Assembly: GCA_010015805.1 (NCBI GenBank)
Contig: ML978123.1
Span: 2,418,001-2,482,000 of the forward strand
DNA from: Rhizodiscina lignyota
Lineage: Eukaryota
DNA length: 64,000 bases
Direction: 5' to 3'
The translations under genes were made by a program, and so were the position numbers. Position 1 is the first letter of the stretch; every line of letters starts with the position of its first letter. Under the pieces are notes generated by a model. It worked only from the letters and a program-made list of their open reading frames with translations. It made no database searches and was not told where the DNA came from. This document shows, one piece after another, positions 9,809 through 10,779 of this stretch.

Positions 9809-10336
9809 TTAGGCAGATGTAGATGTGAATTCTGTGTGATCGAGGTGACGTTGAAATCTCGACTCCAGTGCGCCGGGGGGGTTGGGTTGGTGGGGCAGCA
9901 ACACAGTTGGGTCCGAGTCCTATGATTGCCGTATTATTTTATATTTCGCAACGGCGACGAGGAAAAAATTTATTATAAATTTGGAAAATATAACTTTAGT
10001 ATACTTAAATGTCTACTCTTAATTTTTTTTTAAATTATAATATCTTAATGTGGTGAGATATAAGCGATAGTCTCAAGACATATGCAAGTTCCGAAGAAAC
10101 GGCAGAAAACTGACTTTTTTATATTGTTATTACGTGCTCCCTAATAGTTATATTTTAATTATGAAAAGTGCATATTAGAACTGAGTAGCTAAAATATCCT
10201 TCTGACTTATTTTATTTACAAAAATACTACGGTGTTGTTCAATTATCTTCCCTGGGGCAAGGGAGGGTTTATTTAGTGATATTGTCATATCTATATGTAA
10301 TAGCAGCCTTTCCTAGTGGCTTGATTTTCAGGCCTG

Positions 10337-10486
10337 ACTCCGGTGAGCAAATTCTCCCCGGCTTTGACCAATCAAAGCTAATAAAAGGCCAGTTGGCGCA
10401 GAGGTAGCGCGCCGTTCTTATACTAGTCATTTGCACTCGTATGAATAGTCATGCGGATGTCACGGGTTCGAATCCCGTACGGAGTA
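10337..10486 (+). tRNA. tRNA-Ile(UAU) with two introns: putative spliceosomal intron 10343-10392 and canonical tRNA intron 10423-10450
   Basis: Spliced cloverleaf: acceptor ACTCCGT/ACGGAGT, D stem GCGC/GCGC, anticodon stem CCGTT/TGCGG, anticodon TAT at 10419-10421, T arm ACGGG-TTCGAAT-CCCGT, discriminator A at 10486. Confidence 0.88.
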
Positions 10487-10490
10487 TATC

Positions 10491-10495
10491 TTTTT
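10491..10495 (+). terminator. Pol III-type oligo-T terminator of the tRNA gene
   Basis: T5 run starting 5 nt after the discriminator base. Confidence 0.65.
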
Positions 10496-10779
10496 AAAAG
10501 TTGCATTTCCTATCATTCTGCAAATTTTAAATTAATTTTTTGGGCTGTAGTGGTGAAGAAAATACATTTTTGGTGGCGGTGGTGAGCCGGGCCACGGCGG
10601 GAACCTTTCTCCCATGGACGAAAACTCGGTGATTTTGTACAATAATCAGACAAATTCCAGTTAGGTATTAACAGAGGGATGAAATATTCCATCAGTAGCT
10701 TCTAGGTTTTTAGAAACTCACTCAAATTTAAGACCTAGAGCTCTTCTTCTTCTTCCGAAGCTGTGGCGGGGCTATATTT

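Follow-up and report, generated by a model that had tools for sequence, protein, structure and literature searches.

An mRNA-type insert in the acceptor stem of a Rhizodiscina lignyota tRNA-Ile(UAU) gene, best read as one of a set of introns in genes for this tRNA

Textbooks place the introns of eukaryotic transfer RNA (tRNA) genes only between positions 37 and 38 and assign their removal to the tRNA splicing endonuclease. The tRNA-Ile(UAU) gene described here lies at positions 10337-10486 of a 64,000-nucleotide (nt) stretch of Rhizodiscina lignyota DNA (contig ML978123.1, positions 2,418,001 to 2,482,000 of the forward strand; hereafter the window). It is interrupted twice, by an intron at the expected place in the anticodon loop and by a 50-nt insert in the acceptor stem that carries the splice signals of a messenger RNA (mRNA) intron. 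Judged by these signals and by related genes, the 50-nt insert is best read as belonging to a set of mRNA-type introns that tRNA-Ile(UAU) genes carry and that had not been described before.

In Schizosaccharomyces pombe, the sole U6 gene is transcribed by RNA polymerase III (Pol III) and holds an intron that is excised by the spliceosome and contains the B block; fungal U6 genes have up to four such introns at varied positions, and spliceosomal introns also occur in the genes for the U1, U2 and U5 small nuclear RNAs (snRNAs) and for ribosomal RNA (rRNA), as stated in the available part of a review of U6 (PMC5855946). In that part of the review, tRNA is not named as a host of spliceosomal introns (PMC5855946), and ascomycete ribosomal DNA (rDNA) is listed as having them (Bhattacharya et al. 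2000, as cited in PMC5855946). The tRNA-Ile(UAU) of Cyanidioschyzon merolae has introns at 12/13, 37/38 and 53/54 with hBHBh' motifs, and its ectopic introns are excised before the one in the anticodon loop, according to the portion of the source at hand (PMC9602550). A 2023 review, in its accessible text, puts eukaryotic tRNA introns between N37 and N38 and brings in the spliceosome only as a contrast (PMC10275265). A search of the full-text literature, with subscription journals largely outside it, returned no paper that describes a tRNA gene with a spliceosomal intron; within that scope the result agrees with an earlier reading of the window (the sequence-only reading), which had known of no described case in a tRNA.

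Read directly, the locus begins with an upstream piece of six nucleotides, followed immediately 3' by the 50-nt insert, then by T10393 and the tRNA-Ile(UAU) body up to A10486. The places that the sequence-only reading had assigned to ACTCCG, the insert, the branch motif, T10393 and the acceptor strand were all found as it gave them. The parts of the unit are as follows.

10292-10297, + strand: TATA-like motif TATATG, putative TFIIIB/TATA element, 45 nt 5' of exon 1
10337-10342, + strand: exon 1 (tRNA positions 1-6), ACTCCG, 5' strand of the acceptor stem, pairing 7/7 with 10479-10485 when joined to T10393
10343-10392, + strand: spliceosome-type insert of 50 nt between tRNA positions 6 and 7, recognized by its splice signals and by ARAGORN detection that needs its removal
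10343-10348, + strand: 5' splice site of the insert, GTGAGC
10360-10379, + strand: internal hairpin of the insert, 8 base pairs (bp), from the minimum-energy fold
10377-10382, + strand: branch motif of the insert, GCTAAT, with A10381 11 nt from the insert end
10390-10392, + strand: 3' splice site of the insert, CAG (the insert ends in CCAG)
10393-10422, + strand: exon 2 (tRNA positions 7-37), with the D arm, A box TGGCGCAGAGG, anticodon stem 5' strand and A37, from the Rfam alignment
10419-10421, + strand: anticodon UAU, from the Rfam alignment
10423-10450, + strand: canonical anticodon-loop intron of 28 nt between positions 37 and 38, its boundaries set by hand from the anticodon stem
10451-10486, + strand: exon 3 (tRNA positions 38-73), with the anticodon stem 3' strand, variable loop, T arm and B box GGTTCGAATCC
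10479-10485, + strand: acceptor 3' strand ACGGAGT; the discriminator A73 is 10486
10491-10495, + strand: T5 run, candidate Pol III terminator, 5 nt past the discriminator

Rfam aligns a 30-nt insertion in the anticodon loop after CUUAU, the 28 nt given above being the hand placement; by the same alignment the loop reads CUUAUA, with the insertion after A37. This 28-nt intron is of the type cut by the tRNA splicing endonuclease and sits at 37/38. The sequence-only reading did not spell this intron out; the tRNA-Ile(UAU) identity that it proposed is upheld by the Rfam alignment and by homology. At the bottom of the anticodon stem, positions 31/39 (10416/10452) are T/T, a U-U pair, in the window gene and in all of the eukaryotic loci described below.

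The case for the 50-nt insert starts from what its removal does to the gene. The contiguous 5' strand, GGCCAGT, forms three Watson-Crick pairs and one G-U with the acceptor 3' strand, and removal of the insert takes the stem from three pairs to 7/7; both counts are those that the sequence-only reading had given for the contiguous strand and for ACTCCG joined to T10393. The Rfam tRNA model (RF00005) hits 10387-10486 at 32.6 bits, against a gathering score of 29, and flags acceptor pairs 2, 3 and 5 of the contiguous form as non-standard; a permissive Rfam scan of the full 64 kb gave no tRNA beyond this one. ARAGORN finds no tRNA in the untouched sequence, whether at its default settings or with the intron option, and calls one starting at 10337 (intron option) solely after 10343-10392 has been removed in silico. 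The label that it gives to the spliced gene is Met(cat), because it misplaces the second intron. With both introns out, the minimum-energy fold of the 72-nt product is the cloverleaf, at -26.5 kcal/mol (-25.8 kcal/mol for the imposed cloverleaf), whereas the cloverleaf of the contiguous GGCCAGT form reaches -15.1 kcal/mol and is not the minimum, another fold being preferred; the gain from removing the insert is about 10.7 kcal/mol. Precise removal in silico therefore restores the product by stem, by ARAGORN call and by fold, and in the spliced gene every stem is intact, as are the A box, the B box and the T5 terminator.

The insert has the features of a U2-type GT-AG intron, with a 5' end fitting GTRNGY (GTGAGC), a CTRAY branch motif and a 3' YAG (CAG). 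GT..AG candidates that join open reading frames (ORFs) in the window, a heuristic set assembled without a check against protein homologues, are mostly 45-126 nt long, start with GTAAGT, GTATGT, GTACGT or GTGAGC and contain CTAAT, CTGAC or CTAAC; examples of 52, 55, 60 and 65 nt have GTATGT or GTAAGT starts and CTAAT, CTGAC or CTGAT. Measured by this heuristic set, the insert does share the signals and size class of the mRNA introns in the window, as had been suggested. The chance of such an arrangement was estimated with every window position on both strands as an anchor, 400 random 7-mer targets and a GT..AG gap of 30-120 nt. A split GT..AG completion of a 7-mer stem is expected at 1.2e-4 per anchor, and at 6e-7 per anchor when the gap must also start with GTRNGY and contain CTRAY 6-40 nt from its end. 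For the real stem target, the window has 14 signal-free completions, matching the chance expectation, and one full-signal completion, which is taken as this locus (coordinates were not printed). The insert is no chance pattern.

Comparable inserts are present in related genes. Metagenome contigs were scanned for tRNA body positions 8-37 with six free positions, which gave 39 loci of the following kinds.

Bacterial-looking, intron-less: 2 loci (L016, L026)
Cut by the contig end: 2 loci (L002, L019; an insert begins in L019)
Eukaryotic-type, with the anticodon-loop intron only: 12 loci (L001, L010, L017, L018, L020, L023, L025, L029, L030, L032, L033, L035)
Eukaryotic-type, with a further GT..AG insert, 49-57 nt long: 23 loci, as listed in the next six lines
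Extra insert after about position 43: 4 loci (L012, L022, L027, L037)
Extra insert after position 54: 2 loci (L006, L036)
Extra insert after position 58: 5 loci (L003, L034, L031, L038, L039)
Extra insert after position 59: 8 loci (L007, L008, L011, L013, L014, L015, L021, L024)
Extra insert after position 60: 3 loci (L004, L009, L028)
Extra insert after position 68, inside the acceptor 3' strand: 1 locus (L005)

With the window included, the insert positions are 6/7, about 43/44, 54/55, 58/59, 59/60, 60/61 and 68/69. The automatic parse caught 19 of the 23 extra inserts; the four after about position 43 were spotted by eye and then captured by rule. The two bacterial-looking loci have a TAT anticodon, and an ORF downstream of L026 resembles, on inspection by eye, a short ribosomal protein of the L36 type. 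All 37 eukaryotic loci (37/37) have the anticodon-loop insert, and exon 2 of the window gene is one base apart from the body that they have in common. The metagenome contigs are probably fungal, because of this near-identical tRNA body and their TACTAAC-type signals.

When the extra insert is removed, the 23 loci regain a 5-bp T stem, a 7-nt T loop and a complementary acceptor 3' strand, with the exception that L006 and L036 retain a C3-A70 mismatch, as in their insert-free relatives. This mismatch in the acceptor stem is common to L006, L017, L019, L033 and L036, whether the extra insert is present or not. Among the 24 genes made up of these 23 loci and the window, ARAGORN finds five before removal, each time placing an intron or an end differently from the manual parse, and 24/24 after removal, 18 of them as Ile(tat) and six mislabelled because the second intron is misplaced. 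Rfam at E<=0.01 finds all seven genes tested that have no extra insert (47.0-54.4 bits) and three of 13 that bear one (40.0-42.3 bits).

The 23 loci hold 18 distinct insert sequences, or 19 with the insert of the window. A GTNNGY start is present in all of them (18/18 in the metagenomes, 19/19 with the window), CTAAC, CTAAT, CTGAC or TTGAC lies 9-16 nt before the end in 18/18 metagenome inserts, and the 3' end is YAG in 17 of the 18 and AAG in the other, giving YAG in 18/19 with the window. Identical inserts occur in separate contigs (L003 and L034, L004 and L009, L008 and L014, L012 and L022, L013 and L024) and are therefore not assembly accidents. Conservation was measured in the position-59 group (six distinct genes), where the exons are identical in 6/6 and the anticodon-loop intron has a mean pairwise identity of 98%. 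Within the insert, the invariant columns number five of the first six, four of 19 in columns 7-25 and 23 of the last 32, which cover the branch and acceptor region. In this group, splice signals that are kept while the interior drifts constitute, at the level of the alignment, the signature of spliced introns. The same acceptor sequence is seen with and without the extra insert when L001 and L010 are compared with L005, and L017 and L033 with L006 and L019, and the anticodon-loop introns in these comparisons are similar as well; this points to gain or loss of the inserts over a short time. The A1-U72 pair, which exon 1 supplies in the window gene, is present in 24 of 29 distinct genes (28 from the metagenomes and the window), the other five having G1.

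Copy number was assessed by comparing 10280-10510 at >=80% likeness with the contigs of one run, X1 (34.2 Mb in 15,746 records). Four records match the locus, and all four are accounted for by the locus itself and by a partial duplicate elsewhere in the window; the tRNA body, 10382-10510, is covered once and at single-copy depth, while the depth over 10337-10372 doubles (325 vs about 157-160), as expected of two copies. No second copy of the body was found in run X1 at this likeness, and the interrupted gene may therefore be the sole tRNA-Ile(UAU) gene within that run; if it is the only one, that argues that it must work. The search bears on a question raised in the sequence-only reading, namely whether the genome has another gene for this tRNA, and its answer has the scope of that one run. 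The duplicate, found with blastn-short and by run X1 depth, is as follows.

1737-1810, - strand: degenerate partial duplicate of the tRNA unit

It holds exon 1 and the first 39 nt of the insert at 1810-1766 (-), with 44 of 45 positions matching 10337-10381, and after an 18-nt gap an 11-nt piece of the anticodon arm, CCGTTCTTATA, at 1747-1737 (-). D arm and T arm are absent from it, and Rfam sees no tRNA there. As it retains exon 1, the insert and a piece of the anticodon arm, the three were duplicated as one unit, exon 1 and insert together with tRNA body. The single change in the duplicate leaves the insert hairpin paired, as G-U, and part of the 18-nt gap resembles the 3' part of the anticodon-loop intron of the main gene. 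An introner-like repeated element was considered for the insert and rejected, blastn-short giving the partial duplicate alone in the window and run X1 giving two copies.

As for transcription, the signals around these genes are those of Pol III units. No T run longer than 4 lies inside any of the 29 distinct genes, introns included, and the first run of at least four T starts 1-21 nt past the discriminator in 28/28 genes parsed by script; L039, outside the script count, has a T5 run about 26 nt past the discriminator as judged by eye. With terminator-like T runs past the genes and none longer than 4 inside, they are therefore read as Pol III units. The absence of T5 in the 19 short inserts taken alone is not significant by a rough estimate, the runs past the genes being the stronger evidence. 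In the window there is no T run longer than 3 within the gene, and the longest in the insert is 3.

The insert at 6/7 lies upstream of the A box, so that, for exon 1 to be included, the start of transcription must lie over 57 nt upstream of that box. In the 80 nt upstream of exon 1, TATATG is the sole TATA-like motif, and there is no other closer to 10387. Across 29 distinct upstream regions from the metagenomes, a TATA-like motif precedes the mature 5' end by 28-35 nt in nine and by 51-57 nt in eight, with further motifs at 74-75 nt in two and none in 10. A TATA-directed start just 5' of exon 1 would fit these motif positions. A leader element, (A/C)AGTCCA(G/A)GGAC, was also observed about 8-20 nt 5' of the mature end in L002, L007, L008, L011, L013, L014, L015, L021, L024, L038 and L039; it resembles the acceptor 5' strand of its genes, AGTCCTG, and the TATA-like motif, where present, is 51-57 nt upstream. 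The position-59 inserts (L007, L008, L011, L013, L015, L021) split the genomic B box, and a B-box-like motif (GATTCGAGTCC or GTTCGATTTCC, for example) is conserved within them just 5' of TTTACTAAC.

The window gene sits between two minus-strand genes, and no long + strand ORF crosses the locus. The window is fungal DNA. Among its products are a fused AIR carboxylase of the ADE2 type, an NFACT protein and a HAD hydrolase; the protein-atlas cluster nearest to the ADE2 product has Ascomycota in the majority.

It is probable that 10337-10486 is a working nuclear tRNA-Ile(UAU) gene of three exons, with a spliceosomal intron in a pre-tRNA that Pol III probably makes. All of the computational tests favour the spliceosome-type interpretation put forward in the sequence-only reading. 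The anatomy, the signals, the tRNA restored in silico, the single-copy body and the analogous inserts are what the sequences show; splicing itself, the spliceosome as its agent, the identity of the polymerase and the order of the steps are what we infer. The precursor would begin upstream of 10337 and end in the T5 run (10491-10495). Pol III most likely transcribes it, given intact A and B boxes, a TATA-like motif 45 nt before exon 1 and no internal T run above 3. The spliceosome would excise the 50-nt U2-type intron first, joining G6 to U7, and only then could the 7-bp acceptor stem form. The enzymes that require this stem could act next, namely RNase P, RNase Z and, on the 28-nt anticodon-loop intron, the tRNA splicing endonuclease and ligase. 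In the wider set of genes, it appears fairly likely that the low-copy tRNA-Ile(UAU) gene has been invaded time and again by spliceosomal introns, at at least seven positions and in several eukaryotic, probably fungal lineages, with spliceosome and then endonuclease acting on a Pol III precursor, a replacement B box that may come from the intron where the intron splits the B box, and genes that tRNA finders miss.

Several points weigh against this interpretation. Were transcription to start at the usual short distance from the A box, it would begin within the insert and exon 1 would be lost; TATATG is a weak TATA match, and with its 6 nt plus a leader that is short and probably uncapped, the 5' exon would be unusually small for the spliceosome to assemble on. 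The UAU reading depends on the Rfam alignment and on homology, since ARAGORN misplaces the second intron and labels the spliced gene Met(cat). The single-copy argument depends on run X1 by itself, possibly the source from which the assembly was made, and absence of a further copy is unproven there; exon 1 and the insert have just one other copy, a decayed fragment in the window, and dead copies of the unit therefore exist. Among the 39 metagenome loci there is no insert on the 5' side (0/39), no orthologue of the window insert was found, and the window D loop, AGAGGTA, is shared by none (0/39), AGTGGTA being present instead. The scan covered tRNA-Ile(UAU), and what it says of such inserts holds for this tRNA.

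Spliceosome recruitment is normally coupled to RNA polymerase II (Pol II) and the cap, and this coupling is the starting point of an unlikely alternative in which the intron is spliceosomal and the tRNA is cut from a longer, spliced non-coding RNA made by Pol II, in the manner of small nucleolar RNAs or mascRNA-like mimics. A first exon of 6 nt would be spliced more easily within a longer capped exon, and a start at the normal Pol III distance from the A box would leave out exon 1. However, the T5 run 5 nt past the window gene, the runs of at least four T at 1-21 nt past 28/28 parsed related genes with none longer than 4 inside, the intact A and B boxes and the TATA-like motifs at fixed short distances in 17 of 29 related upstream regions all speak against it, and neither a + strand ORF nor an obvious host gene extends over the locus. 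A spliced Pol III transcript also has a precedent in S. pombe U6, as described in the available part of the review (PMC5855946). Also unlikely is a dead gene, whose 5' acceptor strand was broken by intron-like DNA or by a rearrangement and whose precursor is not spliced, the reading of AUA codons then falling to a tRNA-Ile(UAU) copy that escaped detection or to an inosine-34 tRNA-Ile. The decayed partial copy 8.5 kb away, the low Rfam score of 32.6 bits and the awkward start-site geometry for Pol III would all suit it. Yet the stems, the A and B boxes and the T5 terminator are all intact once the insert is out, run X1 yields no second body copy at >=80% likeness, chance would give the complete splice signals only 6e-7 times per site, and 23 of 39 related loci share the architecture, their signals kept and their interiors diverged, which is unexpected of dead genes. 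The class of tRNA pseudogenes was rejected for the locus on the same intact stems, boxes and terminator and on the lack of another body copy (one run, absence unproven).

The tRNA splicing endonuclease already acts on the precursor at 37/38, and it might with its ligase also remove the 50-nt insert, as an ectopic bulge-helix-bulge (BHB) intron of the kind seen in C. merolae and archaea. This is very improbable: the central BHB helix has two of four pairs in the window insert and at most three of four across the 19 distinct inserts (a simple test, of the four exon bases before the 5' cut against the four intron bases before the 3' cut, made with no dedicated program), the minimum-energy fold of the precursor has no BHB motif, the insert lies at 6/7 and not at 37/38, and all 19 inserts have the GT, branch motif and AG for which an endonuclease intron has no need. 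Coincidence, meaning an ordinary pseudogene with a decayed acceptor stem and with ACTCCG and intron-like signals upstream by chance, deserves almost no credence. Very many windows were scanned and rare coincidences do get picked up that way, but 6e-7 per anchor with signals, a second copy in which exon 1 and the insert are still joined to a piece of the anticodon arm, and analogous inserts at 23 related loci all argue against it. Known 5' editing repairs positions 1-3 of a tRNA; editing of the contiguous stem was dropped, as the mismatch at position 5 would remain. Retention of the insert as an extra arm of the mature tRNA was also dropped, since the GT, branch and AG signals would be left unexplained.

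If the spliceosomal interpretation is true, mRNA-type introns in tRNA genes would break the rule that ties such introns to 37/38 and the endonuclease, and tRNA would join the snRNAs and rRNA as a host of spliceosomal introns. It would also provide a natural system in which the spliceosome acts on a short, uncapped Pol III transcript and in which two splicing pathways must be ordered, and seven sites in one 72-nt RNA would be compact material on intron gain, for example by reverse splicing into abundant structured RNAs. There is a practical side as well, as ARAGORN missed 19 of 24 such genes and Rfam missed 10 of the 13 insert-bearing genes tested. Since finders miss them, annotations of some fungal genomes are likely to list the essential AUA-decoding tRNA as absent or as a pseudogene; to standard finders, tRNA-Ile(UAU) would look absent from genomes of this kind.

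In comparison with the known systems, the locus is like S. pombe U6, as the available text describes it (PMC5855946), in being a presumed Pol III transcript with an mRNA-type intron, and the B-box-like motif inside the position-59 inserts recalls the B block inside the U6 intron. It differs in that the host is a tRNA and not a spliceosomal RNA, in that an endonuclease-type intron also lies in this same precursor, and in that splicing has been shown experimentally for U6, whereas here it is read from sequence; the explanation of U6 introns by reverse splicing, in which the RNA is at the catalytic centre, does not carry over directly to a tRNA. The introns of ascomycete rDNA are likewise mRNA-type and reside in genes for an abundant, structured non-coding RNA outside Pol II, but their host is a transcript of RNA polymerase I and not a tRNA. 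C. merolae offers the same tRNA species with introns outside the anticodon loop, including the T arm, as given in the part of the source available (PMC9602550). Those introns are substrates of the tRNA endonuclease with hBHBh' motifs, in contrast to the inserts described here, which have GT, branch motif and AG and no BHB central helix. The window gene thus combines an intron at 10423-10450 that conforms to the canonical eukaryotic tRNA intron with a 50-nt insert that deviates from it, both in its position at 6/7 and in its mRNA-type signals.

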